Below, in pieces: positions 2,293 through 22,535 of a stretch of DNA of 32,000 nucleotides. The stretch lies in the NCBI GenBank assembly GCA_043808785.1, contig JAZDEL010000010.1:1-32000 (forward strand), read 5' to 3'. A program made the translations under genes and the position numbers. The notes under the pieces are model-generated. The model was not told the origin of the DNA, searched no databases, and saw only the letters and a program-made list of their open reading frames with translations. Origin of the DNA: Candidatus Iainarchaeum sp. (lineage in GTDB: Archaea; Iainarchaeota; Iainarchaeia; Iainarchaeales; JAZDEL01). How positions within the stretch are numbered: the first letter of the stretch is position 1; each line of letters opens with the position of its first letter.

Positions 2293-2343
2293 GCGGGCGC
2301 GGAACTTAAAAAACAAAAAACACATGCGTGTGGTTTGGTTTCT

Positions 2344-3279
2344 ATGGCTGTTAAGCGTGCGGTTGTAACGGGCGGCGCGGGGTTCATAGGCTCGCACCTC
2401 TGCGATTTCCTGCTGGGGGAGGGGTTCGGCGTTGTCTGCATCGACAGCCTAATCACCGGCAGCGTGAAAAATATCGCGCACCTGCGCGGAAATAAAAATT
2501 TCGAATTCATAAGGCACGACATCGTTTCCCCGCCAGGGGTTAAGGGCGGAATAGATTTCATTTACAACCTCGCTTCCCCCGCATCGCCCGTGGATTACCA
2601 GAATCACCCCGTGGAGACGCTGCTTGCGGGTTCGCTCGGCGTGAGGAACATGCTCGAACTCGCCCGCGAAAAGAAGGCGCGCTTCCTGCAGGCTTCGACT
2701 TCCGAAGTTTACGGCGACCCTCTGCAGCATCCCCAGCGCGAGAGTTACTGGGGGAATGTAAACCCCATAGGGCTGCGCTCGTGCTACGACGAGAGCAAGA
2801 GGTTTGCGGAGGCGCTTGTCATGGCTTACCGCCGCACACTCGGCGTTGAAACCCGCATTGTACGCATCTTCAACACATACGGCCCGAGGATGGCGGACGA
2901 AGACGGGAGGGTCGTGCCGAATTTCATAACGCAGGCTCTCGCGGGAAAGCCGCTCACGGTTTACGGCAGCGGAAAGCAGACCCGTTCCTTCTGTTATGTT
3001 TCCGACATGGTGCGCGGCATTGCCCTTGCAATGGAGAAAGGCGGCGCCGAACCCATAAACCTCGGGAACCCGGACGAGTTCACGGTCAATGAGCTCGCGG
3101 AAAAGGTCATCGCCGCAACAGGCTCGAAATCGAAAATTTCATATTCTCCCCTGCCGCAGGACGACCCCGCGCGCAGGAACCCCGACATCTCGCTTGCGAA
3201 AAAAACCCTCGGCTGGGCGCCAAAGGTCCGGCTTAATGAAGGGCTTAAGGAAACAATAAGTTATTTCCGCGGGAAATAA
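2344..3279 (+). CDS. uxs: UDP-glucuronate decarboxylase (UDP-xylose synthase type SDR)
   Basis: [12 protein letters not shown]; [41 protein letters not shown]; [10 protein letters not shown]; [13 protein letters not shown]; [14 protein letters not shown]. These are near-textbook UXS motifs. ATG 2344 is preferred over TTG 2335. Confidence 0.88.
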
Positions 3280-3287
3280 CTGGCCGA

Positions 3288-4898
3288 TTATTCGGGGCAT
3301 TTCTCCCGTGCGTAAACCCAAAAAACCGTGTACGTTCCCGACTTTATTTCCGCACAGGGCGTGAATTTTTCAAGTGCCGCCGCATCCTCGGTATCGAAAA
3401 ATACCGCTGTTGCGACGACATAATCCGTGCTGTCCGCAACATCCGCAAGCCTTGTGTTCACGTAATAATAAAGCCGCTGTTCCTCCTGCCGCGCCTGCGC
3501 AGGCACCCCTGGCAGTTTGGAGAAGAAAGGGTTAACAACAACCGTATCTGTTTTGTAAATCCCGAGGTAATACCTCACGGGGTCCAGGCTGCTTGTGTAC
3601 ACCTTTGCGCCCTGCGGCAGTTTTTGCATCTCCTCCGAAAGCCCGCGGAAATTATGCCCGCTTATCAGCGCGGCATCCTGCCAGGCGAAGAGCAGAATGA
3701 TTGCCGCGAGTGCCGCGATGCCCGCGGCCCTGTTCATTTTCCACGCCCGCGCAATCCCGAACGCGGCAACAGCCATGAGCGGGAACTCCATGCCCAGCGC
3801 ATACCTCGGCGCCATGTACTGGCTGGCAAGCGTGAAGAACGCGAGATATGCCGTGAAAATAAGCAGGAGCATTAGCAAAGTGCGGTTCCTCTCCCTTATT
3901 GCGAAGAGCGCGCCCGCAATGAACAGCAGCGCCGCCGCAGGCGTGAGAAAGAACATAAGTGTTTCGGGGTAAAAGCCGGTGCCCTGCTGCAGCGGCTCCC
4001 CGCCCATGGCATCAACAAACTGCGCGCTGTAATGCTCCATATCGCTTACATAATTGCTCGATTCCGCGCTCCATGTTGCGTATCCGCCGAAACTTGAAAG
4101 CATTGCCGGCAGGAACGCCCCCATTGCCGCCACGCAAATCAGCGCGAATACCGCACAGTTTTTCCTGTTTTCCTTTTCAAGTGCCCAGCCCCTGTTTTCG
4201 AAAATCAGCCATGCGAAAGCCAGCGCAATCAGCGCCGCCGTGTATCGCGTGGCAACCGCGCAGGCAAACATCGCCCCCGCAATGGGCATTAGCCTCGAGT
4301 TCCGCAGGGCGAAAAGGAACACCACAAGCGAACCGTAGCAGAGCGCAACCTCAAGCGGGTTCAGCAGTGCGGTGCTTGAATAAAAAACCGAAAGCGGGGA
4401 AAGCATGAGCAGTGCGAAGAGCACGAGCCCGAATTTTTTATCGCGCAGGTAAACGCCCAGCAGAAGCCCGAAGAAAGCCAGCGCAATCAGCGCTACTGTT
4501 GATATGAGTTTCCCCACAACATCGGGCGCAAGCCCTGTCAGGAATATTCCTATGGATGCGAGAATGTTGAAAAGCGGGGGGTGCCGAGGGTGCAGGGTGA
4601 GGGGAACATGGAGTGCAAGGGATGCAAAGAGCAGGGCAAGCGCAGCCGCGCCAGCGGCAATAACGCTCCTGCGCACGAGGATTAAATATGCGAGAACTGC
4701 AGCCACTGCAAGGCATACTGCAAGTATAAGCGGCTGTGCCCAGAACACCGTTGCAATCTTGTACGCAATCATCACGTGCCAAGCCCCGTCCCAGGCAATG
4801 TCCGTGCCTGAAAAGAAAAGCAGCCTTGCAGCAATGCCCAGCGCACATACAAGCGCGATAAAAGCGATTTCCCGCCCCGAGAATTTCAGCTGTTCCAT
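3288..4898 (-). CDS. polytopic membrane protein, GT-C fold (GT39/GT83, PMT/ArnT-like) glycosyltransferase candidate
   Basis: More than 10 hydrophobic segments. An acidic first-loop segment (TDIAWDGAWH) follows TM1. The C-terminal domain of about 110 aa is soluble. Placed immediately downstream of DegT on the same strand. ATG 4898 is preferred; TTG 4940 is possible. Confidence 0.68.
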   Translation of the reverse strand: MEQLKFSGREIAFIALVCALGIAARLLFFSGTDIAWDGAWHVMIAYKIATVFWAQPLILAVCLAVAAVLAYLILVRRSVIAAGAAALALLFASLALHVPLTLHPRHPPLFNILASIGIFLTGLAPDVVGKLISTVALIALAFFGLLLGVYLRDKKFGLVLFALLMLSPLSVFYSSTALLNPLEVALCYGSLVVFLFALRNSRLMPIAGAMFACAVATRYTAALIALAFAWLIFENRGWALEKENRKNCAVFALICVAAMGAFLPAMLSSFGGYATWSAESSNYVSDMEHYSAQFVDAMGGEPLQQGTGFYPETLMFFLTPAAALLFIAGALFAIRERNRTLLMLLLIFTAYLAFFTLASQYMAPRYALGMEFPLMAVAAFGIARAWKMNRAAGIAALAAIILLFAWQDAALISGHNFRGLSEEMQKLPQGAKVYTSSLDPVRYYLGIYKTDTVVVNPFFSKLPGVPAQARQEEQRLYYYVNTRLADVADSTDYVVATAVFFDTEDAAALEKFTPCAEIKSGTYTVFWVYAREKCPE

Positions 4899-4944
4899 AC
4901 AATCCGCCGTGGAATTTCCCGCGCAGGCAAACCGCGCCAAGGTT

Positions 4945-6045
4945 TTACGCCCGCCCGAGTATTTTTTTCAGGTGAGAAACAACAATTTCCTGTTTTTCCT
5001 TTCCCATGCCGCACCAGAGCGGTATGTCTATGAGGCTTTTCCAGAGGGAGTAGGAAACGGGAAAGTCCGCCTTCCCGTAGCCGTATCTTTCCGCATAATA
5101 AGGCTGCGCGTGTATCGGCGGGAAACTCAGCCTTGTTTCTATGCCTTCCTTTGCAAGCCCTTCGACAATAATGTCGCGCTTTTTCGCGTCGACATTAACC
5201 GTGTAAAGGTACCATGCGTGCTGCGTTACATAATCGGGGATGTGCGGCAGTTCCAGCCCTTTCACGCCCTCCAGCGCCCTGTAATATTCATCCGCAAGCC
5301 CCTGCTTTTCGCTTATAACCGAATCAAGCCTCGCAAGCTGGCTGTTGCCTACGGCAGCCTGCAAATCGGTCATCCTGTAATTGTTGCCGAGCATAACATG
5401 CCTGTACCTGCCCTCCTGCCCCTGGTTGCGTATTTTGCGCATCTTTTCAGCGAGTTCCGCATCCCCCGTTGTTACCATTCCCCCCTCCCCCGTAGTTATG
5501 TTCTTGTTCGGGAAGAACGAGAAGCAGTGCAGCGGCGCTATGCTCCCTATCCTCCTTTTTTTGTATGTGGCGCCGAGGCTTTCCGCGCTGTCGGCAACGA
5601 GCGCTATGCCCTTTTTTTCGCAGAGTTCAGTTATTTCATCGTAATCCGCCGGCATGCCGTTCATGTCGACTGAAATTACCGCCTTCGTTTTCGCAGTGAT
5701 GCGCTTCCTTATCTCGTCCGCGGTTATGTTGTAAGTTTCCTTGTCGCACTCCGCAAGAACGGGTTTCGCGCCCTGGTAAAGCACGACATTCGCGGTCGAG
5801 ATGAATGTAAGCGTGGGCAGTATTACCTCGTCCCCGTGCCCTATGCCGAGCGCCACAAGCGCGGTGTGCAGCGCGGATGTGCCGTTGTTAACCGCCACGG
5901 CGTTTTTCGCGCCCGTGCATTTGCAGAAATTTTCCTCGAATTCCTTCACGCGCGGGCCCATGCTGAGCCACTGGCTCTTTACCGTTTCATACGCCGCCCT
6001 TGCGTCGTCCTCGTTCAGGCTGGTGTTAGCGACAGGTATCTTCAT
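4945..6045 (-). CDS. DegT/DnrJ/EryC1/StrS-family PLP-dependent sugar aminotransferase
   Basis: NNGTSALH; DSAESLGA; Schiff-base Lys retained in SFFPNKNITTGEGG. SD GGAGAGGG sits just upstream of ATG 6045. Confidence 0.9.
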   Translation of the reverse strand: MKIPVANTSLNEDDARAAYETVKSQWLSMGPRVKEFEENFCKCTGAKNAVAVNNGTSALHTALVALGIGHGDEVILPTLTFISTANVVLYQGAKPVLAECDKETYNITADEIRKRITAKTKAVISVDMNGMPADYDEITELCEKKGIALVADSAESLGATYKKRRIGSIAPLHCFSFFPNKNITTGEGGMVTTGDAELAEKMRKIRNQGQEGRYRHVMLGNNYRMTDLQAAVGNSQLARLDSVISEKQGLADEYYRALEGVKGLELPHIPDYVTQHAWYLYTVNVDAKKRDIIVEGLAKEGIETRLSFPPIHAQPYYAERYGYGKADFPVSYSLWKSLIDIPLWCGMGKEKQEIVVSHLKKILGRA

Positions 6046-6151
6046 TTCCCTCTCCCCCGCGTTTCAACTGTTTCACCTAAATCTTAAATAAACCATATTT
6101 AAACCTTTTTGCGCAGCATTCTTTCATTGCGCGGCTGAAGGCGGGTTTTCC

Positions 6152-6164
6152 TTGGTACAAAAAT
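6152..6164 (+). promoter_or_regulatory. TTGGTACAAAAAT motif, copy a
   Basis: 13-mer identical to the reverse complement of 19120-19132. It lies in the divergent DegT/dehydrogenase spacer and coincides with the TTG that opens the ORF-track call. Confidence 0.4.
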
Positions 6165-7501
6165 CTAACGTGAATGTTCGTGCAAAAGTGCCTGTTGTCG
6201 CGGTCTGCGGCCTCGGTTACATAGGCATGCCCATGGTTGCGGCATTCGCGAATTCGGGCCTCGGGGTAATAGGCGTCGACATCGACGGCGCGAAAGTGAA
6301 GGCCCTGCGTGAAAAATATTCCGCGGAAATATTCGAGCCCGGCCTGAACGAAACCCTGCGGAAGCACAAAAGCGCGATAACCTTCACATGTGACTATGCA
6401 GTTGCAATGAAGGAAGCGGACGCGGTGATAATAACGGTGGGCACGCCCCTTAAAAACTCCCGCGAGCCGAATTACGAGTACATAGACGGCGTGCTCGAGA
6501 GCATCGGCAAAGGCCTGCGCCGCGGGCAGGTAATTATGCTCAAATCCACCGTTGTGCCCGGCACAACCGAGAACCACGCAAAGTCGCGCCTTGAAGCCCT
6601 TTCGGGCCTGAAGGCCGGAAAGGATTTCTTCCTCGCATTCTGCCCCGAAAGAACAATAGAGGGCATGGCAATGCACGAACTTTACACCCTGCCTAAAATA
6701 GTGGGGGGCATAAACCGCGGGAGTGCGGAAAAGGCGGCTGAAATAATCTCCCGCCTCGGCGGGCGCGTTGTAATTGTTTCAAGCCCGAGGGTCGCGGAAC
6801 TATGCAAATTAATAGACAACCTTTACCGCGCGGTCAACATAGCGTTCGCGAACGAGGTCGGCATGCTCTGCGAAAAGATGGGCATAGACTCCTACGAGGT
6901 TGTGGAGGCGGTGAACAATTCATATTCACGCACATCTATATTCAAGCCGGGGCTGGGCGCGGACGGGCCGTGCCTTTCGAAGGACCCCGAGATATTCAGG
7001 TATTTTTCCGAGAGCAACGCGCTCGGCGCCGCGCTCGTTAACGCGACGATAGACGGGAACCAGCACGCAACCCTCCGCATTGCCGACATTGTCAGGCGCT
7101 TTGTTCGCGGGCACAAAATTGCGAAGCCGCGCATAGCCGTGCTCGGCCTCGCGTTCAAGGGCAAGCCCGAAACCGATGACATGCGTGGCGCGCCCTCCGT
7201 GAAGATAACGGACGCGCTCGGCGCGGAGTTCGATATGGAGTACGCGGCATTCGACCCTGTTGTGAAAACATTTATGGGCAGGCCGGTGGAGGCAGGTATC
7301 GCCGCCGCCCTTAAGGGCGCGGATGCGGTGCTTTTCCTCACAAACCACGAGAAGCTGATGAATGCGGACGCGAAACTTATCCTCTCGAACTGCAATAAAC
7401 CCGTGCTTGTCGTGGACTGCTGGCACAACATTGCGGACGCCGCGGCGCTGAGGCATGCAAGGGGCGTTGAGTACGTCAGGATAGGGGACGGGACGGCGTG
7501 A
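6152..7501 (+). CDS. nucleotide-sugar dehydrogenase (UDP-glucose/GDP-mannose dehydrogenase family, second paralog)
   Basis: VAVCGLGYIGMPMVAAF Rossmann motif; catalytic-Cys motif GLGADGPCLSKDP; LGLAFKGKPETDDMRGAP. The start is uncertain: there is no in-frame ATG, and the candidates are TTG 6152, GTG 6170 and GTG 6188. Confidence 0.85.
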   Translation: MVQKSNVNVRAKVPVVAVCGLGYIGMPMVAAFANSGLGVIGVDIDGAKVKALREKYSAEIFEPGLNETLRKHKSAITFTCDYAVAMKEADAVIITVGTPLKNSREPNYEYIDGVLESIGKGLRRGQVIMLKSTVVPGTTENHAKSRLEALSGLKAGKDFFLAFCPERTIEGMAMHELYTLPKIVGGINRGSAEKAAEIISRLGGRVVIVSSPRVAELCKLIDNLYRAVNIAFANEVGMLCEKMGIDSYEVVEAVNNSYSRTSIFKPGLGADGPCLSKDPEIFRYFSESNALGAALVNATIDGNQHATLRIADIVRRFVRGHKIAKPRIAVLGLAFKGKPETDDMRGAPSVKITDALGAEFDMEYAAFDPVVKTFMGRPVEAGIAAALKGADAVLFLTNHEKLMNADAKLILSNCNKPVLVVDCWHNIADAAALRHARGVEYVRIGDGTA

Positions 7502-13737: not shown

Positions 13738-13811
13738 TCCATAAACAGCCAGTGCATTCCCCGCACCCGCAGGCTGCAGTTGCAGAGTTCACTCCATAAA
13801 CAGCCAGTGCA
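13738..13811 (-). repeat. echo of the B12-radical-SAM 3' end (13738-13756 versus 13793-13811)
   Basis: TCCATAAACAGCCAGTGCA is repeated 19 of 19 with a 55-nt offset. On the minus strand both copies read HWLFME followed by a stop: TGA in the gene, TAA in the echo. Confidence 0.8.
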
Positions 13812-15180
13812 GCCCCCTTTTCATCACGAAATAGAAATGCTGCGGAGTCCTTATTTCGCGCAGCATCCCGAGCAGTATGTGCGGCCGCATGTAGAATTTC
13901 GACAGCCCTTTCTGCCTCAGCTGCCTCAGCCTTTCCTTGCTTATTCCCTTCGGCGAATACGTTGCGCGGAAAAGGAAGCAGTTCTTCCAGTCAACATCCC
14001 CTATCTCGCCGCTTGCCCTGAGCGTGTCGTAAATCTCCGTGCCCGGGAAAGGCTGGAGGCAGGAGAAATTTATGCGCTTCAGTTTAAGCCCGAGCACGAA
14101 ATTTATTGTTTCCTCTATTTCCTCCTCGGTTTCAGTCGGGAAGCCGAGCATCACAAACCCGATAACCCCCAAGCCGACGGAATCAATCAGTTCTATCTTC
14201 TCCCTTGTCTGTGCGGGAGTGAGCCTTTTTTTGACAAGTTTAAGTATGCGCTCCGAACCCGATTCTATTCCCACGGAAACCGAGTAAAGCCCCGAGCGCT
14301 TCATCAGCAGGAGCAGTTCCCTGTCAAGCGTGTCCAAACGCATGCCGTTCGGGCAGCACCAGCTTATCCCGAGGTTCTCCGAAATCAGGCGGTTGCAGAA
14401 CTCCTCCACAAAGCGCCTGCTCATCGTGAAATTGTCGTCCTCTATATGTATTTCATTTATGCCGTACCTGTTGTGCAGGAGCTTTATTTCCTCTATCACG
14501 GAATCCACGCCGCGCACCCTTATCATTCTCCCCGAAACAACATGCCCGGCGCAGAACGTGCACTGGTAAGGGCAGCCGCGCGTAACAATTATCGGCGCAG
14601 TGGGGTACTGCCTGAAGAACGAGCCGTGCGGCGCCTGCGGGTATGTGCCTGGCCTGAGCAAGTCCCATGAGGGCGTGCCCAGTTCGTCGAGGTTCTTGAC
14701 AAATTTCCTTTCGTTCACAACAACGCGTTCCCCGTCCCTCCATATGAGGGATGGCACTTTTGCAAGTTTGGCTTTGCCTTTTTCGCCTTTCTCAAGCAAA
14801 TCAAGCAGCGCAGGGAACCCGATTTCGCTCTCCCCCGCAAATGCGAAATCTATTTCGGGAATTTCGCGCATTGTTTCTTCGGGCATCGCGGAAGGGTGCG
14901 GCCCGCCGACAACAACGGTTACGTGCGGGAACCTTTCCTTTATTCCCCTTGCGGTTTCCATTATGCCGCCGTAGTTCATTGTGAAGAACTGCATGCCGAC
15001 CACATCTATGCCCTGCGCGCCGATTTTCTCGAGCAGCTGCTCCGTGCCGATGTTTTCCTTTATGCAGTCAAGTATGCCGACGCTGTGCCTGCCCCTTATT
15101 GCCGTGGCTATGTAACCCAGCCCTATGGGGGGCATTGTTTCGTCCGCTGTGCTTTTGAGCTTTACAAGAAGCACTTTCAA
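13789..15180 (-). CDS. B12-binding-domain radical SAM protein (class B type)
   Basis: The N-terminal Rossmann-like domain (PPIGLGYIAT..., VVVGGPHPS) is followed by IIVTRGCPYQCTFCAG (CX3CX2C) and a TIM-barrel-like region. The start is TTG, with GAGGG 7 nt upstream. Confidence 0.88.
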   Translation of the reverse strand: MKVLLVKLKSTADETMPPIGLGYIATAIRGRHSVGILDCIKENIGTEQLLEKIGAQGIDVVGMQFFTMNYGGIMETARGIKERFPHVTVVVGGPHPSAMPEETMREIPEIDFAFAGESEIGFPALLDLLEKGEKGKAKLAKVPSLIWRDGERVVVNERKFVKNLDELGTPSWDLLRPGTYPQAPHGSFFRQYPTAPIIVTRGCPYQCTFCAGHVVSGRMIRVRGVDSVIEEIKLLHNRYGINEIHIEDDNFTMSRRFVEEFCNRLISENLGISWCCPNGMRLDTLDRELLLLMKRSGLYSVSVGIESGSERILKLVKKRLTPAQTREKIELIDSVGLGVIGFVMLGFPTETEEEIEETINFVLGLKLKRINFSCLQPFPGTEIYDTLRASGEIGDVDWKNCFLFRATYSPKGISKERLRQLRQKGLSKFYMRPHILLGMLREIRTPQHFYFVMKRGLHWLFME

Positions 15181-15218
15181 GCTATCGCCCTCATCCCACT
15201 TGCAAACTAATTCCCGCT

Positions 15219-15241
15219 GCGCTATCTATTTTAATTGTTTC
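15219..15241 (+). promoter_or_regulatory. 23-nt promoter-like box, copy 1 (GCGCTATCTATTTTAATTGTTTC)
   Basis: Identical to copy 3. Contains TATTTTAA (15227-15234). ATG 15261 follows the box by 19 nt. Confidence 0.55.
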
Positions 15242-15267
15242 TGCGCGCTTGCGATCGCGCATGCCGC

Positions 15268-15340
15268 GTGCTGCCTCGCTATTTTGCCTGCGGGCAAAAT
15301 GCGCGCATTCGGGCTTCTGCCCGAATAGCGTCGGCAGCAC
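15268..15340 (+). ncRNA. candidate structured element: closing 8-bp stem plus two twin 11-bp hairpins (Y shape)
   Basis: GTGCTGCC (15268-15275) pairs with GGCAGCAC (15333-15340). The hairpins are at 15277-15303 (loop TGCG) and 15304-15330 (loop TTCT), each with one bulged base. In total 60 of 73 nt are paired. Confidence 0.4.
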
Positions 15341-15364
15341 TAGCCTACCCGCGCTTTCTGCCTT

Positions 15365-15387
15365 GCGCCACCTATTTTAATTGTTTC
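15365..15387 (+). promoter_or_regulatory. 23-nt promoter-like box, copy 2 (GCGCCACCTATTTTAATTGTTTC)
   Basis: 21 of 23 identical to copies 1 and 3. Immediately followed by TGGTACAAAA. Confidence 0.5.
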
Positions 15388-15397
15388 TGGTACAAAA
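15388..15397 (+). promoter_or_regulatory. TGGTACAAAA motif, copy b
   Basis: Directly abuts promoter-like box copy 2. Confidence 0.35.
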
Positions 15398-15422
15398 CCC
15401 GCAACCTTATGCAGTGCCTGCC

Positions 15423-15445
15423 GCGCTATCTATTTTAATTGTTTC
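15423..15445 (+). promoter_or_regulatory. 23-nt promoter-like box, copy 3: likely promoter of the dehydrogenase operon
   Basis: TATTTTAA (15431-15438) ends 24 nt before ATG 15463, and no SD lies between. Confidence 0.6.
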
Positions 15446-15462
15446 CATGGAGCATTCTTTGC

Positions 15463-16764
15463 ATGAAATCCGCGGATGAAACGGTTTGCATAATCGGTCT
15501 CGGCTATGTCGGCTTGCCGCTTGCATGCCTCTGCGCAGGGCGCGGCCTTGATGTCAGGGGCCTGGAAGTGAGCAGCTCCATTGTCGATAAGGTTAACCGC
15601 GGCACAAGCCACATTGATGACGCGAAACTCAAGCGCGAGGTTGCCGTGCTTAAGGGAAAAATCCGCGCAACTTCGGATGCTGCGGAAGCGATGAAAGGCG
15701 CCGACGCCGTAATCGTCTGCGTCCCCACGCCCGTTGACGCACAGCAGGAACCCGACCTTGCCGCGCTTAAATCCGCGTGCTCCGCAATCGCAAAAAACCT
15801 GAAGAAGGGGCAAATGGTTATAATCGAATCCACAATTTACCCCGGCACGGTCGAGGAAGTGGTTCTGCCGATTCTTGAGCAGGGTTCGGGGCTCAAGGCA
15901 GGAAAGGATTTCGACCTTGCGCACTGCCCGGAACGCATAGACCCTGGGAATGAAAAATGGCCAGTTGAAAAAATACCGAGGGTTGTTGCAGCATTAACGC
16001 CGGAAGGTACAAGGCGTGCAGCAACATTCTACAGGGGCATTTTGGATAAGGGCGTGCCTGTGCTTGAACTCAAATCCCTCAAGGCTGCCGAAGCAGTGAA
16101 GGTAACGGAGAACACTTTCCGCGATATAAACATAGCGTTTGTAAACGAACTTGCCAAATCCTTCGACCAGTTGGGCATAGACATTTCGGAAGTTGTAAGT
16201 GGCGCATCCACAAAGCCCTTCGGCTTCATGCCTTTTTACCCGGGGCCGGGGGTAGGGGGGCACTGCATTCCAGTTGACCCTTACTACCTCATAAAGCGCG
16301 CCCGTGACTCGGGTTTCGAACACAGGTTCCTTTCCCTTGCGCGCGAGATAAATAATTCAATGCCCGATTATGTAGCATCCCTCGCCGAAAAAATGGCCCG
16401 CAATTTGGGCGCAGGCATGAAAGGCATGCGCATCTGCGTCCTCGGAATTTCATATAAGAAAGGAATAGACGACGCGCGAAACAGCCCGGCAATGGAGATT
16501 GCGGAACTGCTTGCAAAGAAGGGCGCGGATGTTGTTTCTTTCGACCCGCACATTCCCTCCAAATCCGCTGCGAAATCTTTGGAGGAAGCATTGAAGGGCT
16601 CAGCAATCGCGGTGCTCGCAACCGACCACAAGGAGTTCATTTCCCCCCTCCCCCCCGCGAGCCTGAAAAAATTAGGGGTGAAGGGCGTAATCGATGCGCG
16701 CAATGCGCTTGACAGGGAAGGCATTATCGCTGCAGGAATATTGTACAAGGGAATAGGGCGTTAG
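15463..16764 (+). CDS. nucleotide-sugar dehydrogenase, UDP-N-acetyl-hexosamine (WecC/Cap5O-like) type, third paralog
   Basis: VCIIGLGYVGLPLACLCA; catalytic-Cys motif GPGVGGHCIPVDPYY; LGISYKKGIDDARNSP. ATG 15463 is preferred over TTG 15439, which lies inside the promoter box. Confidence 0.88.
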   Translation: MKSADETVCIIGLGYVGLPLACLCAGRGLDVRGLEVSSSIVDKVNRGTSHIDDAKLKREVAVLKGKIRATSDAAEAMKGADAVIVCVPTPVDAQQEPDLAALKSACSAIAKNLKKGQMVIIESTIYPGTVEEVVLPILEQGSGLKAGKDFDLAHCPERIDPGNEKWPVEKIPRVVAALTPEGTRRAATFYRGILDKGVPVLELKSLKAAEAVKVTENTFRDINIAFVNELAKSFDQLGIDISEVVSGASTKPFGFMPFYPGPGVGGHCIPVDPYYLIKRARDSGFEHRFLSLAREINNSMPDYVASLAEKMARNLGAGMKGMRICVLGISYKKGIDDARNSPAMEIAELLAKKGADVVSFDPHIPSKSAAKSLEEALKGSAIAVLATDHKEFISPLPPASLKKLGVKGVIDARNALDREGIIAAGILYKGIGR

Positions 16765-16765
16765 C

Positions 16766-17722
16766 ATGCTTAAACAAGCCGAAAAATTGCTCCCCCTTCT
16801 CGGAATTGCGCTTTTTGCCGCGATAATCTGGTTGGTAGGCATTGACAAGATAATTTCCGCAGCGCTTTCGGCAAACCCGACAATGCTCCTTGCAGCGGCG
16901 CTTATACTTATCCCCGTAGCCCTTATCCAGGCATTCAAGTGGCACTACCTTATTGAAAAACAAAAACTCGGCGAGGTTAGTTTTTTCCAAGCGCTCCGCT
17001 GGTATTTCATAGGCTTATTCTACGGCGCGATAACTCCCGCAAAGATCGGCTCGTTCATGCGCATAAGCCTTCTTCAAAAAGCCACAGGCAAGCCGCTCGG
17101 GGCGTGCAGCGCGAGCGTTGTGCTGGATAGGATGCTTGACGTACTTTCAGTCGCCCTTCTGGCGTTTTTCGGCGCGGTTTTTTTCCTGAACGCCATCTCA
17201 GGCTCCGTGTTCCTTGCCTTCGCCCTCCTGCTTGCAGCGCTTATCCTCGCGCTCTGGCTTCTCACATCGCGGGGAAAAGGCGCCGCGCTGCTCTCCGCGC
17301 TTTATGCCAAACTAATTCCTGAAAAACTGAAGCCGCAGGCTTCGGAACTTTTCTCCTCTTTCCGCGCGGGCATGCCGCAGAGGGGCGCGCTTTCATTTGC
17401 ATTCATCCTCTCCTTTATTTCATGGGTGCTTATTTTCACGCAGACCTACATTGTGGCGCTCGCACTCGGCATGGGCTTCGAATACGCATTTTTCATCGCC
17501 GCTGTCGCGGTTTCCAGCATTGTCGCGCTCCTGCCGGTGACGATAAACGGCCTGGGCACAAGCGAGGCCGCCCTTATTGTCCTGCTCTCCCCGTTCAATG
17601 CAGCTCCAAGCGCGATTGTCGCGATGTCCCTTATCTCAGCCCTCCTCCTTACCTACCTCTCCGCTGCGGTAGGCGCGGCATTTGCGCTCACTGCAAAATC
17701 TTTTAAGCCTTTAACAGGATGA
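16766..17722 (+). CDS. integral membrane protein, lysylphosphatidylglycerol-synthase-TM / 'flippase-like' (UPF0104) family candidate
   Basis: About 8 TM segments. The N-terminus KLLPLLGIALFAAIIWLVGIDKI...ALIQAFKWHYL is typical of this family as I recall it. Placed between sugar-modifying genes. Confidence 0.65.
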   Translation: MLKQAEKLLPLLGIALFAAIIWLVGIDKIISAALSANPTMLLAAALILIPVALIQAFKWHYLIEKQKLGEVSFFQALRWYFIGLFYGAITPAKIGSFMRISLLQKATGKPLGACSASVVLDRMLDVLSVALLAFFGAVFFLNAISGSVFLAFALLLAALILALWLLTSRGKGAALLSALYAKLIPEKLKPQASELFSSFRAGMPQRGALSFAFILSFISWVLIFTQTYIVALALGMGFEYAFFIAAVAVSSIVALLPVTINGLGTSEAALIVLLSPFNAAPSAIVAMSLISALLLTYLSAAVGAAFALTAKSFKPLTG

Positions 17723-19077
17723 TTCGTATGATGGGCAGGGATGAAACCGAAATCAGGAATAACATCCGCGAAGAAATTGTGCGGTTCTTCGAGCTAAAGG
17801 AAAGCGCCGCGGACAGGAAATTCGTTCCCGGCAAAACCAAGATACAGTACGCCGGCCCTGTTGTGGGGCAAGAGGAAATCGGCGCATTCGTTTCCTCCCT
17901 GCTCGACGGCTGGTTTGGAGTTGGGAGGCAGGCAGCGGCTTTCGAAAACGCGTTCTCGCGCTATCTCGGCACTTCTTCCTCGGTGCTCACAAACTCTGGC
18001 TCCTCCGCAAACCTTCTTGCAATTGCGGCGCTGCGCTCAAGGCAGGCGGAGAAGCCGCTGAAGGCGGGTGACGAGGTCATAACTCCCGCGTGCACATTCC
18101 CCACAACATTCAACGCGATAATCCAGAACAACCTCAGGCCCGTTCTCCTCGACGCGGAGCTCGGCACTTACAACATAAACCCCGCACACCTCGAAAAGGC
18201 GCTCTCGGAAAAAACCCGCGCAATAATGCTCCCTCACACTTTGGGCAACCCGAACAAAATGGATGCTGTAATGGATTTCGCGGAAGAGCACGGCCTCTTC
18301 GTTATTGAGGACACTGCTGATGCGCTCGGTTCCGAATACAAGGGAAAACTTGCTGGCTCCTTCGGGCATATGGGAACGTTTTCATTTTACGTCGCGCACC
18401 AGATGACAATGGGGGAAGGGGGCGCGATAGCGCTGCGCGACAAATCATTCGAACCCATAGTGCGCTCGCTGCGCGACTGGGGCAGAAACTGCGCCTGCAG
18501 TGTCTGCAGGGTTGCAGTTAGCCCGCAGGACTTCTGCCCTTTCAGGGAAAGCGCGGAAAAGGCCGCCAAAGGCACGCCGCTGGATGGCTACGAAAACCGC
18601 TACCTTTACAGCAACATCGGCTACAACCTCAAGCCGCTTGAGTTTCAGGCTGCGATGGGCATTGTGCAATTGAAGCGCCTGCCCGAGTTCATAAAAAAGC
18701 GCAGGCATAATTTCGAGGTGCTTTATGAGGAGTTCAGTGGGCTTGAGGATTGTTTTGTGCTTCCTGAAGCAACTGAAAACTCAAAGCCCGCGTGGTTCGC
18801 GTTCCCGCTCACGATAAAAGAAGGCGCGGGTTTCGGCAGGGCGGAATTCGTGAAATGGCTTGAGAAATGCCGCATTGAAACCCGCATGCTTTTCGCGGGA
18901 AACATCCTCATGCATCCCGCATATGCGGGCATCGATGTGCGGGTTGCGGAGCCGCTTTCAAACTCCGACACGGTGCTCAAAAACAGCCTGTTTTTGGGCG
19001 TATACCCGGGCATAACCGACGAGATGCTTTCGTACGTTTCCGCGAAGGTCAGGGAGTTCGTTGCCGCGCACAAATAG
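17719..19077 (+). CDS. RfbH/DdhC (E1)-like DegT-family enzyme, paralog 1 (putative PMP-dependent NDP-4-keto-6-deoxyhexose 3-dehydrase)
   Basis: SLLDGWFGVGR; TNSGSSANL; GDEVITPACTFPTT; His replaces Lys in FSFYVAHQMTMGEGG; SLRDWGRNCACSVCRVAVSPQDFC (C-x-C-x2-C-x9-C); PEATENSKPAWFAFPLT; TRMLFAGN. The start is ATG 17719 (an ATGA overlap with the upstream stop) or ATG 17728. Confidence 0.87.
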   Translation: MIRMMGRDETEIRNNIREEIVRFFELKESAADRKFVPGKTKIQYAGPVVGQEEIGAFVSSLLDGWFGVGRQAAAFENAFSRYLGTSSSVLTNSGSSANLLAIAALRSRQAEKPLKAGDEVITPACTFPTTFNAIIQNNLRPVLLDAELGTYNINPAHLEKALSEKTRAIMLPHTLGNPNKMDAVMDFAEEHGLFVIEDTADALGSEYKGKLAGSFGHMGTFSFYVAHQMTMGEGGAIALRDKSFEPIVRSLRDWGRNCACSVCRVAVSPQDFCPFRESAEKAAKGTPLDGYENRYLYSNIGYNLKPLEFQAAMGIVQLKRLPEFIKKRRHNFEVLYEEFSGLEDCFVLPEATENSKPAWFAFPLTIKEGAGFGRAEFVKWLEKCRIETRMLFAGNILMHPAYAGIDVRVAEPLSNSDTVLKNSLFLGVYPGITDEMLSYVSAKVREFVAAHK

Positions 19078-19119
19078 CCCCCGTACTGCGGCAGCCATAG
19101 CCCCCTGCAGGCATCTGCG

Positions 19120-19132
19120 ATTTTTGTACCAA
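19120..19132 (-). promoter_or_regulatory. TTGGTACAAAAAT motif, copy c (minus orientation)
   Basis: The plus strand reads ATTTTTGTACCAA. The flank GGCGGGCTT resembles the flank GGCGGGTTTTCC of copy a. Confidence 0.4.
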
Positions 19133-19194: not shown

Positions 19195-20154
19195 ATGCGT
19201 GTCCTGGTTACCGGTGCTGCGGGGCTTTACGGCGTCCACACGGTTGCGGAGCTTGTCTCAAGCGCGAAAACCGGGAAAATTTTCGCGCTCGACGACATGA
19301 GCCGCGGCTTTCTCGGCAGGGAGCCGTTCATACTGCCCGAGGGCTTTGCGGAAAAGGTCCAGATAATGAAGCGCGATTTCCGCACGCTTAAGGCGAAAGA
19401 AATCGATGCAATGAAGCTTGACACCATTATGCATTTTGCCGCGCACGTTTCCATAGACGAAAGCATGGTTAACCCGCGGAAATATTTCGACAACAACGAG
19501 CTCGGCACGTTCAACCTTTGCAGGGAGCTGCTTGCAAGCAAAACAAAGCCGGCGCTTATTTACGCATCATCCCCCGAGGTTTACGGCAACCCTCTGCGCA
19601 CGCCGATGGACGAATTGCACCCTCTTTCCCCGAGGAGCGTTTACGCAGTCACAAAACTCGCTGCTGAAAAGCACTGCCTCTCCATGTTCGAATGGCACAA
19701 TTATCCCGTGAACGTTATAAGGAACTTCAACACATTCGGCGAGAACCAGAACCTCTGGGGCTATTCCGCGGTAATTCCCGCATTCATAAGCCGCGCGCTG
19801 AAAGGGCAGGCACTGCAGGTTTCCGGCAGCGGGGAGCAGACGCGTGATTTCCTGTATGTGAAGGACGCGGCACGCGCTTACAGGATGCTCGCTGAAAAAG
19901 GCGGCTCTATAAAAGGCGAAATATTCAACATAGGCACGGGGAAGCAGACAAGCGTAAAGGCGCTTGCCGAAAAAATAATAAAAATCACGGGTTCTGGTTC
20001 GGAGATTGTTTCCGCGGAGGCGAGGAAGGGCGACCTCAAGGCGCTGGAGGCGGACGTTTCAAAAATTTCCTCTTCCCTCGGATGGAAGCCGAAGTACACG
20101 CTTGAACAGGGCCTGAAGGAAACCGCGGAATGGTACGGAAAATTTGTGAAGTGA
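19195..20154 (+). CDS. NAD-dependent epimerase/dehydratase family protein (extended SDR)
   Basis: VLVTGAAGLYG; HFAAHVSIDES; ASSPEVYG; YAVTKLAAE (YxxxK); GSGEQTRDFLYV; C-terminal TAEWYGKFVK. Confidence 0.85.
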   Translation: MRVLVTGAAGLYGVHTVAELVSSAKTGKIFALDDMSRGFLGREPFILPEGFAEKVQIMKRDFRTLKAKEIDAMKLDTIMHFAAHVSIDESMVNPRKYFDNNELGTFNLCRELLASKTKPALIYASSPEVYGNPLRTPMDELHPLSPRSVYAVTKLAAEKHCLSMFEWHNYPVNVIRNFNTFGENQNLWGYSAVIPAFISRALKGQALQVSGSGEQTRDFLYVKDAARAYRMLAEKGGSIKGEIFNIGTGKQTSVKALAEKIIKITGSGSEIVSAEARKGDLKALEADVSKISSSLGWKPKYTLEQGLKETAEWYGKFVK

Positions 20155-20200: not shown

Positions 20201-20215
20201 TTTTTGGTGTGCATT

Positions 20216-21172
20216 ATGGCTAATGTCCTTGTAACAGGCGGCGCGGGGTTCATAGGGCGCTGGGTTGTGAAAAAATTGCTCGGCGAAAAGCACAGGGTGT
20301 GGGTTCTTGACAACCTCTCCAACGGCAGCGCGGAAAACCTTGCGGAGTTCAAGGGCAATAAAAATTTCGCGGGGCTTGTTCAGGGAAATGTGGAGGATGC
20401 CGCGCTTGTTTCAGGGCTCTTCTCCAAAAACAAATTCGACCTCGTTATCCACCTCGCTGCGCAGATAAACGTTCAGGAAAGCATCGGCAATCCGCGGAAA
20501 AGTTTCGATTCCAACATCCTCGGCACATTTGTCCTGCTCGAGGAGATGAGGAAGCGCAGGTCCTTGCCGAAAATGGCGCTCATAGGCACATGCATGGTTT
20601 ACGACCTCGCCTCAGCAGGCGGGGCAATAAGCGAATCGCATCCCTTGAAGCCGTTGAGCCCTTACGCGGCATCAAAGATCGCCGCAGAGCAGCTTGTCGA
20701 GGCCTACGGAAATTCCTACTCCCTCCCCTACACAATCCTGCGCCCGTTCAATACCTACGGCCCTTTCCAGAAAAGCAATATGGAAGGGGGCGTTGTAAGC
20801 ATCTTCCTGCAGAACGCCCTCAACAAAGAGCCGCTGAAGGTTTTCGGCTCGGGCAAGCAGACGCGCGACCTTCTCTATGTGGAGGACTGCACTGAGTTCA
20901 TAGTGCGCGCGGCATTTGAAAAGCGCGCGGAGGGTAAGGTGATAAATGCGGGCTCTGGGCAGGACATAAGCGTAAATGAACTCGCGAAAATCATCGCCCG
21001 CGGAAAATCCAAAGTCCTGCACGTGAAACACCACCACCCTCAGGCGGAGATAATGAAGCTGCAGTGCGATTATTCCCTTGCGCGGAAACTCCTCGGATGG
21101 AAGCCGAGGCACACGCTTGAGGAAGGCATAAATGAAACTCGCGAGTGGCTCTCGCGCCAGGGGGGAAATTGA
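20216..21172 (+). CDS. NAD-dependent epimerase/dehydratase family protein (extended SDR)
   Basis: [14 protein letters not shown]; VLDNLSNGS; HLAAQINVQES; YAASKIAAE; FGSGKQTRDLLYV. ATG 20216 has GGTG 6 nt upstream. Confidence 0.85.
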   Translation: MANVLVTGGAGFIGRWVVKKLLGEKHRVWVLDNLSNGSAENLAEFKGNKNFAGLVQGNVEDAALVSGLFSKNKFDLVIHLAAQINVQESIGNPRKSFDSNILGTFVLLEEMRKRRSLPKMALIGTCMVYDLASAGGAISESHPLKPLSPYAASKIAAEQLVEAYGNSYSLPYTILRPFNTYGPFQKSNMEGGVVSIFLQNALNKEPLKVFGSGKQTRDLLYVEDCTEFIVRAAFEKRAEGKVINAGSGQDISVNELAKIIARGKSKVLHVKHHHPQAEIMKLQCDYSLARKLLGWKPRHTLEEGINETREWLSRQGGN

Positions 21173-21173
21173 T

Positions 21174-22535
21174 ATGGCTTCGGGCAAGGGTGTGCTGTCA
21201 GGCAAGGGGGGAACTGGCGAGGCTTCCGCAAAGGAGCAGCAGATTTTCAGGCTTGTGGAAGAACTGATGAAGGAAAATGAAGAATCGAAAAAATTTATCC
21301 CTGGGCAGTCAAAGGTCCACTACTCGGGCCCGTTGTTCGGCCACCGCGAGGTTAACGCAATACTCTCCAGCCTCTTCGACGGCTGGCTTGCGGAGGGGAA
21401 GAATACGGTCGAGTTCGAGAGGCGCTTTTCGCAGTTCGTCGGGGCAAAGGATGCCGTGGTGACAAACTCAGGCTCTTCCGCCCTGCTGCTTTCCTTTGCA
21501 GCGCTTATGAACCGCGGGGTCGAGAACCCGCTGAAGCAGGGCGATGAAGTAATAACCTCCGCGCTCACATTCCCCACAACCCTGAATGCAGCGCTGCTTA
21601 ACGGCCTTTCACTCGCTTTTGTCGACGTTGACAGGCAGAGCTACAATATGGGCCTTGCGCAGCTCGAGCGCACGGTTACAAAGAAAACCCGCGCAATCCT
21701 CGCAATGCATCACCTCGGAAACCCTATAGAGATGGATGCGCTTATGGAGATTGCGGAAAGGCATGACCTTGCGGTTGTCGAGGACTGCTGCGATGCGCAC
21801 GGCTCTTCATACAAGGGAAAAAAGCTCGGCTCATGGGGCGAGTTAGGGGCGTTTTCATTTTACGGCGCGCACGCAATGACAATGGGTGAAGGGGGAATAA
21901 TCACGACAAGCAACGAGGCGCTTGTGCCGCTTCTGCTTTCGCTGAAAACCTGCGGCAGGGCCTGCGTTTGCAGGGTATGCACGATTGCAATGAACTCCGA
22001 AACCCGCTGCCCGATAAGGTTCAAGGCGGGGATGAAGGGCTTCGAGGAATACGACAAGCGCACGCTTTACCCGAACGTAGGCTATAAGCTCAAGACTTTG
22101 GACCTGCAGGCCGCCATGGGCCTCGTGCAATTGGAGCGCCTGCCGCAGTTCGTAAAGTCGCGCAAGAGGAATTTCGATTTCATTGTTTCCTCTCTGCGCC
22201 CGTTTGAAAAATTCCTGCAGCTTCCCGAGGAAACAAAAAATTCCGAAGCCTGCTGGTTTGCGGTGCCCCTTACGATAAAGGAGGGCGCACCCTTCTCGCG
22301 CAGGGATATTGTTGACTTCCTCGAGAAAAAGAACATAGAAACAAGGCCGCTGCTCGGCGGCAACATACTTAAGCAGCCCGCTTACAATGGGATGAAGTTC
22401 CGTTCAACGCCCCTGCCAAACACCGATTATTTCCACGACAATTCATTCTATATCGGCTGCCACCCCGGATTGACGCATGAGATGCTGGATTACATTGCCT
22501 GCAGTTTCGGGGAATTTTTCAAGAGGCCGAAGTAA
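21174..22535 (+). CDS. RfbH/DdhC (E1)-like DegT-family enzyme, paralog 2
   Basis: Collinear with paralog 1: SLFDGWLAEGK; TNSGSSALL; GDEVITSALTFPTT; VEDCCDAHGS; His in FSFYGAHAMTMGEGG; CGRACVCRVCTIAMNSETRC (C-x3-C-x-C-x2-C-x9-C); PEETKNSEACWFAVPLT. ATG 21174 lies directly after the upstream stop. Confidence 0.87.
   Translation: MASGKGVLSGKGGTGEASAKEQQIFRLVEELMKENEESKKFIPGQSKVHYSGPLFGHREVNAILSSLFDGWLAEGKNTVEFERRFSQFVGAKDAVVTNSGSSALLLSFAALMNRGVENPLKQGDEVITSALTFPTTLNAALLNGLSLAFVDVDRQSYNMGLAQLERTVTKKTRAILAMHHLGNPIEMDALMEIAERHDLAVVEDCCDAHGSSYKGKKLGSWGELGAFSFYGAHAMTMGEGGIITTSNEALVPLLLSLKTCGRACVCRVCTIAMNSETRCPIRFKAGMKGFEEYDKRTLYPNVGYKLKTLDLQAAMGLVQLERLPQFVKSRKRNFDFIVSSLRPFEKFLQLPEETKNSEACWFAVPLTIKEGAPFSRRDIVDFLEKKNIETRPLLGGNILKQPAYNGMKFRSTPLPNTDYFHDNSFYIGCHPGLTHEMLDYIACSFGEFFKRPK

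Follow-up and report, generated by a model that had tools for sequence, protein, structure and literature searches.

A Y-shaped promoter-proximal element in an Iainarchaeota genome as a copy of a small family of nested palindromic repeats, possibly of REP-doublet/REPIN-like type

Introduction

The DNA analysed here (the window, 32,000 nt) comes from a DPANN archaeon of the phylum Iainarchaeota and, judged by Pfam domains, represents a cluster for glycan/polysaccharide biosynthesis. Two divergent genes in it are separated by a 282-nt spacer. On the minus strand lies a B12-binding radical SAM gene (13789-15180, TTG start at 15180; PF02310, PF04055) and on the plus strand a UDP-sugar dehydrogenase gene of the UDP-N-acetyl-D-hexosamine type (15463-16764, ATG at 15463; PF03721, PF00984, PF03720). 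The dehydrogenase is 100% identical to a MAG protein listed at NCBI under 'Candidatus Diapherotrites archaeon'. The spacer contains a 73-nt element (15268-15340), co-oriented with the dehydrogenase gene, which folds into the shape of a Y. A first-pass annotation of this DNA knew of no feature class to which the element could be assigned. The question raised by this locus is whether the element is a structured RNA or leader, a site bound by a protein, or a DNA repeat.

Structure of the element and of its promoter region

The outer stem of the element, here called S1, is formed by the 5' arm GTGCTGCC (15268-15275), which is exactly complementary to the 3' arm GGCAGCAC (15333-15340). It encloses two hairpins of 11 bp each, together called module T1. 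Hairpin 1 (15277-15303) reads CGC-T-ATTTTGCC-TGCG-GGCAAAAT-GCG, with a bulged T and the loop TGCG, and is based, like the 3' arm of S1, on sequence, fold and alignment. Hairpin 2 (15304-15330) reads CGC-ATTCGGGC-TTCT-GCCCGAAT-A-GCG, with a bulged A and the loop TTCT, and was found by sequence, fold and an inverted-repeat scan. Upstream of S1 lies a further hairpin, H0, with the arms TGCGCG and CGCGCA (15242-15261), which is seen in the sequence and in folds. The first-pass annotation had already described these pairings, H0 included, and all of them are present at the positions given when the sequence is read directly; its figure of 60 paired nucleotides among the 73 is confirmed by a count of 30 pairs. 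The twin hairpin is itself an imperfect palindrome, with 31-nt arms of 71% complementarity, in which hairpin 1 approximates the reverse complement of hairpin 2 and the bulged T corresponds by symmetry to the bulged A.

Folding of both strands, a check proposed together with the first-pass annotation, recovered the Y with z values of about -7, far beyond the shuffled sequences. As RNA, the plus strand of the 73-mer reached -46.4 kcal/mol, compared to -25.6 +/- 3.0 kcal/mol for dinucleotide shuffles (z -6.9; none of 200 shuffles was equal), and the minus strand reached -44.7 kcal/mol (z -6.9). DNA parameters gave an identical Y on both strands (z -7.6 and -8.2). In the minimum free energy fold of 15240-15358, the region of the upstream hairpin is paired slightly otherwise than in the simple 6-bp reading. 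Pattern searches with each hairpin across the window returned the element itself as the sole match. TGGTACAAAA is found again near 6152 and 19125, which in a window of 32 kb was not considered significant.

The element is located between repeated promoter boxes, as the first-pass annotation had correctly recognized, and the three 29-nt boxes are real. They form a direct repeat on the plus strand (repeat family D6): copy 1 (15213-15241) contains the TATA-like sequence TATTTTAA at 15227-15234, copy 2 (15359-15387) is 79% identical to copy 1, and copy 3 (15417-15445), with a TATA-like box at 15431-15438, is the gene-proximal promoter. The 16-nt core of the boxes, CTATTTTAATTGTTTC, occurs exactly three times in the window, with 0.34 occurrences expected. 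Copies 2 and 3 are separated by a 29-nt plus-strand spacer, TGGTACAAAACCCGCAACCTTATGCAGTG (15388-15416), which, read from its sequence, may be the remnant of a second insert.

Copies in related genomes

In a search for further copies, an exact 20-mer from the junction of the two hairpins was compared with a set of genomes, one for each GTDB species. It matched three separate contigs of the MAG JBDRDO01 ('Candidatus Iainarchaeum archaeon'), each with the full architecture, next to genes for an FKBP isomerase (L001), a proteasome alpha subunit (L002) and a FlaI-like ATPase (L005). The remaining matches were two bacterial sequences without hairpin context. A fifth, partial copy (L036) surfaced when the ortholog of the isomerase was fetched from a third species (Logan assembly SRR22387960, G+C 0.51). 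The isomerase of L036 is 64% identical to that of L001, and the contig ends inside the twin hairpin, 104 nt upstream of the isomerase ATG. Assemblers typically break at repeats. In total, five loci were seen in three genomes, with at least three loci and six modules in JBDRDO01 according to the exact 20-mer scan and a single copy in the 32 kb of the window. A covariance model built from the copies scored the four complete ones at 65-100 bits and had no comparable hit in the rest of the window or in some 120 kb of further Iainarchaeota sequence.

The element is a member of a family, and this changes the verdict of the first-pass annotation that no feature class accounts for it: the palindromic unit recurs at unrelated intergenic sites, nested and in tandem, as do REP/BIME/REPIN- or MITE-like repeats. 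That annotation had named as a refuting case the occurrence of the same unit at dozens of unrelated intergenic sites. The recurrence is of this kind, but its extent is five loci. A small RNA, a structured leader or a cruciform, the options which that annotation had offered, may still arise at the locus as secondary consequences.

Searches against known families and collections gave no assignment. Rfam showed no match in the window at the gathering threshold and only noise at a relaxed threshold of E<=10 (window, L001 and L002). ARAGORN detected neither a tRNA nor a tmRNA in the window. The 206-nt element of the proteasome locus had no blastn match in phage and plasmid collections. A metagenome scan with a degenerate 21-mer yielded 19 loci, all of them chance matches without hairpin context, and the viral-contig collections scanned gave nothing or chance matches.

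Conservation of the structure

The family is constrained in its structure. Conservation between loci is limited to about 70 nt, running from CTGCC to GGCAG. The hairpin stems are invariant among the four T1 copies; that of hairpin 1 is changed on both sides in an additional copy nested at the proteasome locus. The tetraloops vary freely. Those of hairpin 1 are TGCG, TGCG, TACG and one that is interrupted by an insert, and those of hairpin 2 differ in every copy (TTCT, AACA, TTGT and CTAA). In S1, two positions are changed on both sides between the window and the ATPase locus, where the arms read GGGCTGCT and AGCAGCCC. The first-pass annotation had suggested a search for compensatory changes, and across the copies the stems are indeed either invariant or changed on both sides.

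In an alignment of the five full copies, from which the nested insert of L002 (loop written as TGCG) and a 10-nt insertion of L001 were removed, both in unpaired columns only, 95% of the cells are paired and 7 pairs are changed on both sides. None of 500 shuffles matched this, and slid controls were 30-41% paired. For hairpin 2 alone, six copies from three species could be aligned with 97% of the cells paired (slid controls 24-35%), four pairs being changed on both sides and none on one side only. The copies contain no G-U pairs or intermediates. Genomes whose orthologous proteins share 65% identity, and whose G+C contents are 0.55 and 0.46-0.49, have identical T1 stems and a core of about 89% identity.

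Nesting of the palindromes

Folds of whole inserts show a common order of H0, a short GTGAT-like linker and then S1 enclosing the twin T1. The arms of H0, TGCGCG/CGCGCA in the window, read GCGCGGA/TCCGCGC in L005, CGCCGGA/TCCGGCG in L001 and GCGGCGGA/TCCGCGC in L002. In L001 and L002, H0 encloses a second kind of twin, T2, which consists of a TTCCGAA-type and a TTTCGGGC-type hairpin. In addition, L002 contains a second module, T1', which is nested in the loop of hairpin 1 and reads CCC-T-ATTTTGGC...GGG followed by TGC-AATTGGGC...A-GCA. Compared to T1, it carries five changes on both sides and retains both bulges. All seven complete twin modules lie within the loop of another hairpin. The enclosing hairpin is S1, H0 (in L001 and L002) or, once, hairpin 1 of another module (in L002).

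Genomic context and flanking duplications

The family occupies promoter-proximal DNA of unrelated genes in one orientation. All five copies are located 20-125 nt upstream of a gene and are co-oriented with it. The genes downstream, encoding the dehydrogenase in the window, the isomerase in two species, the proteasome alpha subunit and the FlaI-like ATPase, are functionally unrelated; three loci out of the four complete ones represent divergent promoter regions. A TATA-like box is found about 27 nt ahead of the insert in the window, L001 and L002, and in the window, L001 and L005 a TATA-like box follows the end of the element at a distance of 0-33 nt. In box 3, the TATA-like TATTTTAA is centred 28.5 nt before the dehydrogenase ATG at 15463, and the isomerase gene of L001 and L036 likewise has a TATA-to-start spacing of 27.5-28.5 nt. 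From this spacing at both genes we infer archaeal TATA promoters that drive leaderless or near-leaderless mRNAs.

Direct repeats of 24-37 nt, specific in sequence to each locus, lie on both sides of the element in three of the four complete loci; they repeat the promoter or the start of the gene. In the window this is the 29-nt promoter box in three copies (local alignment score 48, shuffle maximum 27). In L001 it is a 24-nt repeat, AGTTAAATTTATAACCCnCGCGCA, corresponding to the isomerase promoter (score 43, shuffle maximum 24), and in L005 about 35 nt of the ATPase start, ATGAAAATTGGCGG..., in three copies (score 30, shuffle maximum 25). No flanking repeat was found in L002 (score 15, shuffle maximum 23). 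The repeats in the window are therefore part of the same phenomenon as the element. The first-pass annotation had treated them as promoter repeats; the boxes themselves hold, but since two other loci have analogous duplications around the element, with sequences of their own, they are better read as element-associated, locus-specific duplications than as an independent regulatory array.

Several origins of these duplications are conceivable. They could have resulted from a long staggered cut at insertion, from a tandem duplication of promoter and element followed by precise loss of one element, or from selection for any rearrangement by which a promoter regained its leaderless spacing. Unequal exchange between the repeats could explain why the window and L005 have third copies.

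Turnover between species

Copies are gained, lost or replaced between species. In L028, an ortholog of the FlaI-like ATPase gene (78% identity), the element is absent and only a single gene start with an 84-nt spacer is present; its proximal promoter aligns with the promoter directly 3' of the element in L005. In JBDRDO01, the next-closest genome to that of the window, the ortholog of the dehydrogenase (65% identical) overlaps a PMT_2 gene by 8 nt within one operon. This dehydrogenase cluster has neither the radical SAM gene nor the intergenic spacer, so that the divergent control region as a whole is specific to the lineage of the window. Two species carry an element at the isomerase site, T1 in one and a T1'-like variant in the other, and both subfamilies are present in JBDRDO01. 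Within one population, the copy at the isomerase locus is fixed: three MAGs and two Logan assemblies have it unchanged in an identical spacer of 254 nt, and a search for a polymorphic empty site among these five assemblies found none.

Discussion

The element in the window seems best explained as one member of a small family of dispersed, nested palindromic DNA repeats in Iainarchaeota that is REP-doublet/REPIN-like, a reading to which we assign a probability of about 0.58; possibly the element is also transcribed. The assignment is based on the dispersed and nested occurrence of the family, the equal folding of both strands, the twofold symmetry and the lack of G-U intermediates. It is further based on subfamilies that span species, on orthologous sites that differ in occupancy and on the contig break inside a copy. 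The position of H0 points in the same direction. At a spacing of 27-29 nt, the upstream promoter copy is predicted to start transcription at about 15259 in the window, inside H0, and at about 3196 in L001, after the 5' arm of H0. The H0 stem would thus be absent from the RNA, which favours a constraint at the DNA level.

A REP-like repeat of this kind would propagate, or be homogenised, at the DNA level as single-stranded hairpins or as a cruciform. A putative trans-acting enzyme would recognise the hairpin structures, the obvious candidate being a nuclease of the HUH/Y1 type as in REP/RAYT or IS200/IS605. At the locus in the window, the element may have landed between the promoter and the dehydrogenase gene, where only the duplication of the promoter would keep one copy at a distance suited to a leaderless mRNA. 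Transcription of the element from the upstream promoter copy would probably yield a long structured leader or, as a by-product, a very stable RNA.

Several observations count against a REP-like nature. Few copies were seen (at least three loci in JBDRDO01); REP/REPIN families typically hold tens to hundreds. Among the ORFs of the window and those flanking L001, L002 and L005, no transposase or nuclease gene was found. Nor was a polymorphic empty site seen, the isomerase-locus copy being the same in all five assemblies. The invariant stems and saturated loops suggest selection on each copy rather than recent neutral spread, and the common orientation of all five copies, with the TATA-like box about 27 nt ahead at three loci, would fit an RNA role equally well. 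Regarding the long flanking duplications, we know of no REP, REPIN, MITE or IS200/IS605 mechanism that makes them. We do not place the family among REPs, REPINs or MITEs proper, because the test for the REP tag sequences fails, the copy number looks low and the duplications of 24-37 nt fit none of these known mechanisms.

The strongest competitor is a family of paralogous structured ncRNAs or 5' leaders, transcribed from the upstream duplicate of the promoter, which would act as a stable small RNA or as a leader in cis and in which the nested hairpins would be expansion segments. We consider this possible but clearly less probable than the repeat. The co-orientation of all five copies 20-125 nt upstream of a gene, the TATA-like box at about 27 nt in the window, L001 and L002, and the strong covariation are what would be expected of such an RNA. 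The same is true for the occupation of the isomerase site in two species with 64% identical isomerases, beside a highly conserved promoter, and for the selection on each copy implied by invariant stems and free loops. However, the RNA would have no Rfam match even at E<=10, it would contain G-U pairs nowhere, and the opposite strand would fold equally well. Furthermore, an oligo-T terminator after the element is not consistent, the downstream genes are functionally unrelated and the predicted start of transcription would leave out the conserved H0 stem. The orthologous isomerase site holds a different subfamily, and other sites are empty in relatives, which is also difficult to reconcile with a conserved RNA.

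A protein-binding site in duplex or cruciform DNA appears improbable. Each 8-N4-8 palindrome would then be the site of a dimeric transcription factor or of an architectural protein in a divergent control region, directly upstream of the gene-proximal TATA box. Conserved arms of 8 bp around a freely variable centre of 4 nt do resemble a dimeric site, a TATA-like box follows 0-33 nt after the element at three loci (window, L001 and L005), and divergent promoter regions account for three of the four complete loci. But all hairpins, about 14 in number, are perfect palindromes, while real factor sites are rarely perfect, and the CGC/GCG closing pairs, the conserved bulge and the covariation of S1 and H0 need folding of the strand. 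Moreover, T1' alters both half-sites together, and the neighbouring genes have no common regulatory logic.

A degenerate mini-array built by a Cas1-like or integron-like integrase, in which the 29-nt boxes would be the repeats and pieces of 117 nt and 29 nt the inserts, could draw on the three direct repeats, on the 29-nt spacer between copies 2 and 3 and on the fact that insertions which duplicate about 24-37 bp are known elsewhere mainly from the duplication of CRISPR repeats, but it is largely refuted, as the repeats are locus-specific, differ at L001 and L005 and contain the promoter or start codon of the gene itself, L002 has no flanking repeat, attC core sites are absent by inspection, and the ORFs of the window contain no cas, integrase or intI domain.

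If the reading as REP-doublet/REPIN-like repeats is true, a structurally analogous family in streamlined DPANN genomes would extend REP/REPIN biology across domains and would point to a hairpin-recognising enzyme in these organisms. The link to duplicated promoters suggests a route by which a selfish insert may be tolerated, or co-opted as a promoter-driven structured RNA, in organisms dependent on leaderless mRNAs. A more far-reaching version, which we regard as rather doubtful, is that the family would be the first REPIN-like self-propagating palindromic replicator in Archaea, one that lands in hairpin loops and duplicates 24-37 bp of the target promoter or gene start, so that a structured RNA unit comes to lie under a copy of the neighbour's promoter; neither the landing in loops nor such a duplication is known from bacterial REPs. 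REP/REPIN-type palindromic repeats are regarded as bacterial. For genome reconstruction it is relevant that such repeats break MAG assemblies, one contig ending within a copy, and that they are easily mistaken for novel riboswitch-like RNAs.

Comparison with known systems

Several known classes were considered and rejected on their hallmarks. The element has no conserved core of a hammerhead or other ribozyme, no C and D boxes of a C/D-box sRNA and no bulge-helix-bulge of a BHB intron. For a TnpB omega-RNA or a bridge RNA, the associated gene and a match in Rfam are missing. It is not a CRISPR-like array, in which one repeat sequence would be common to all arrays of a genome and cas genes would be present: the repeats differ between loci and correspond to the promoter or start of the respective gene, and no cas domain was present in the ORFs examined. 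Integron attC sites, recombination sites which are also known from archaeal integrons, resemble the element in being folded single strands, 60-140 nt long, that have extrahelical bases and in some cases a branched tip, and they were reported from MAGs of the DPANN group (Ghaly et al. 2022, PMC9668308). At the ends of the element, however, there are no R'' (RYYYAAC) or R' (GTTRRRY) cores, the copies are singletons by housekeeping genes instead of arrays of short cassettes with at least two sites within 4 kb, and no intI was found.

MITEs, among them archaeal ones and the MITE-like C/D-box sRNA element described in Pyrobaculum calidifontis (Lui et al. 2018, PMC6009581), are likewise small, non-coding, multicopy and intergenic; they have terminal inverted repeats, can be transcribed and show nested insertions. 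Their target-site duplications measure 2-10 bp, in contrast to the 24-37 nt found here, which are absent at L002. The ends of MITEs match an autonomous IS; no IS was found in the sequences examined here. The element has no C/D boxes. Palindromes derived from IS200/IS605 resemble the element as imperfect hairpins with an extrahelical T which are recognised as single-stranded DNA, and in their strand-specific insertion. Unlike the twin of the archaeal element, which is inverted, their end hairpins are in direct orientation, and they insert 3' of a fixed tetra- or pentanucleotide and without duplication of the target, whereas the left flanks of the four loci here differ (..TTGTTTC, ..TTTGAAG, ..CGCGCA and ..TTTCCGG) and have no common motif.

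The closest likeness is to REP-type repeats. Bacterial REPs have stems of 8 bp and loops of 4 nt with occasional bulges, and form head-to-head dimers 0-2 nt apart, which in T. roseum, H. neapolitanus and A. variabilis sit in larger palindromes (Di Nocera et al. 2013, PMC3733652). The archaeal element similarly consists of two short extragenic hairpins of 27 nt with 8-bp stems, 4-nt loops and single-base bulges; its stems are kept or changed on both sides while the loops are variable, and its inverted dimer lies within a larger palindrome, represented by the 8-bp outer stem. It differs in its archaeal host and in the few copies seen here, REPs being palindromes of 20-40 bp with tens to thousands of copies per genome. 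Bacterial REPs carry GTAG- and CGTC-tagged palindromes (PMC3733652). Their tag abuts one end of the stem. In contrast, the archaeal element has no GTAG tag, and a CGTC (within AGCGTC) is found 2 nt beyond hairpin 2 on its 3' side, opposite to the side of a REP tag and not adjacent to the stem, in the four T1 copies but not in L036. Furthermore, the archaeal copies are promoter-proximal and 5' of genes, whereas REPs are usually 3' or between convergent genes, and they are flanked by the locus-specific duplications of 24-37 nt.

REPINs consist of two inverted REP hairpins in a larger foldback, with conserved arms and a variable centre (Bertels & Rainey 2011, PMC3116915; bioRxiv 10.1101/2021.07.10.451892), and the archaeal family shares these features. 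Like REPINs, it comprises distinct sequence subfamilies that are retained in related species, which would fit a long vertical persistence. REPINs measure about 100 bp and are present in hundreds of copies, with a cognate single-copy RAYT gene for each type (PMC3116915; 10.1101/2021.07.10.451892). A RAYT (Y1/HUH) domain was not found in the ORFs of the window or of the L001, L002 and L005 flanks, and a flanking duplication, as seen here, is not known for REPINs. Among palindromic repeats, the archaeal element is unusual in two ways, its recursive nesting and its duplication of promoters.

Sequence context of the hairpin element

At the locus of the FlaI-like ATPase (L005, in the MAG JBDRDO01), a 50-codon upstream ORF (MKIGGFEGADRS...; 6938-6786, minus strand) begins in the second duplicate copy of the ATPase start and spans the hairpin element without interruption. 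Its stop codon TGA overlaps the true ATPase ATG (ATGA), a layout resembling translational coupling. The window (ORF 15235-15438) and the proteasome alpha locus (L002) likewise have this frame open across the element. The FlaI-like ATPase adjoining the element has 758 aa and contains no intein. Several orthologs from Iainarchaeota/DPANN (protein matches P0141, P0144, P0192, P0216 and others) measure about 1270 aa and include intein or homing-endonuclease domains (PF14528, PF14890).

The promoter and 5' region of the isomerase gene are near-identical in two species (ATTTATAACCCCCGCGCAGG at 3337-3373 of L001, the FKBP isomerase locus of JBDRDO01, and ATTTATAACCCCAGCGCAGG at 71-107 of L036, a Logan contig from SRR22387960), despite an identity of only 64% between the isomerase proteins. 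Such a match is unusually strong for non-coding DNA. The Logan contig terminates within the twin hairpin that precedes the isomerase gene (L036 1-42). An assembly break at a repeat would fit this, and the SRR22387960 genome therefore probably has further copies of the element.

Repeats and gene content of the window

A perfect 10-bp palindrome, AGTTATTTCC-GCG-GGAAATAACT, is located at 3259-3281, where two convergent genes meet (2335-3279, plus strand; 3288-4940, minus strand), and may be a bidirectional terminator or a 3'-end hairpin. The second of these genes is a 550-aa ORF with no Pfam match. It contains both copies of an exact 21-nt direct repeat, GAAAGCCAGCGCAATCAGCGC (4215-4235 and 4473-4493, spacing 258 nt), and this duplication suggests an internal repeat in the predicted protein. 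The word TTGGTACAAAAATC or TGGTACAAAA occurs at 6152-6165, 15388-15397 and 19117-19130 (minus strand). All three sites lie at or close to gene starts or intergenic regions, and one of them is the 29-nt spacer that separates promoter boxes 2 and 3. Its recurrence was judged to lie within chance for 32 kb.

The gene cluster of the window includes several paralogous sets, with two to three DegT-type aminotransferases, at least four NAD-dependent epimerases/dehydratases and three UDP-sugar dehydrogenases. The paralogous genes (17719-19077 with 21132-22535; 19195-20154 with 20204-21172; 212-1510, 6152-7501 and 15463-16764) are connected at the DNA level by the repeat families D1-D5.

Comparison of 13789-15462 with the syntenic cluster of a related Iainarchaeum genome (L025-L027, positions 4446-7257) revealed two additions in the window, a B12-binding radical SAM gene encoded on the opposite strand and a new divergent control region. 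Both separate the PMT_2-like gene from the dehydrogenase, two genes that overlap by 8 nt in the related genome.
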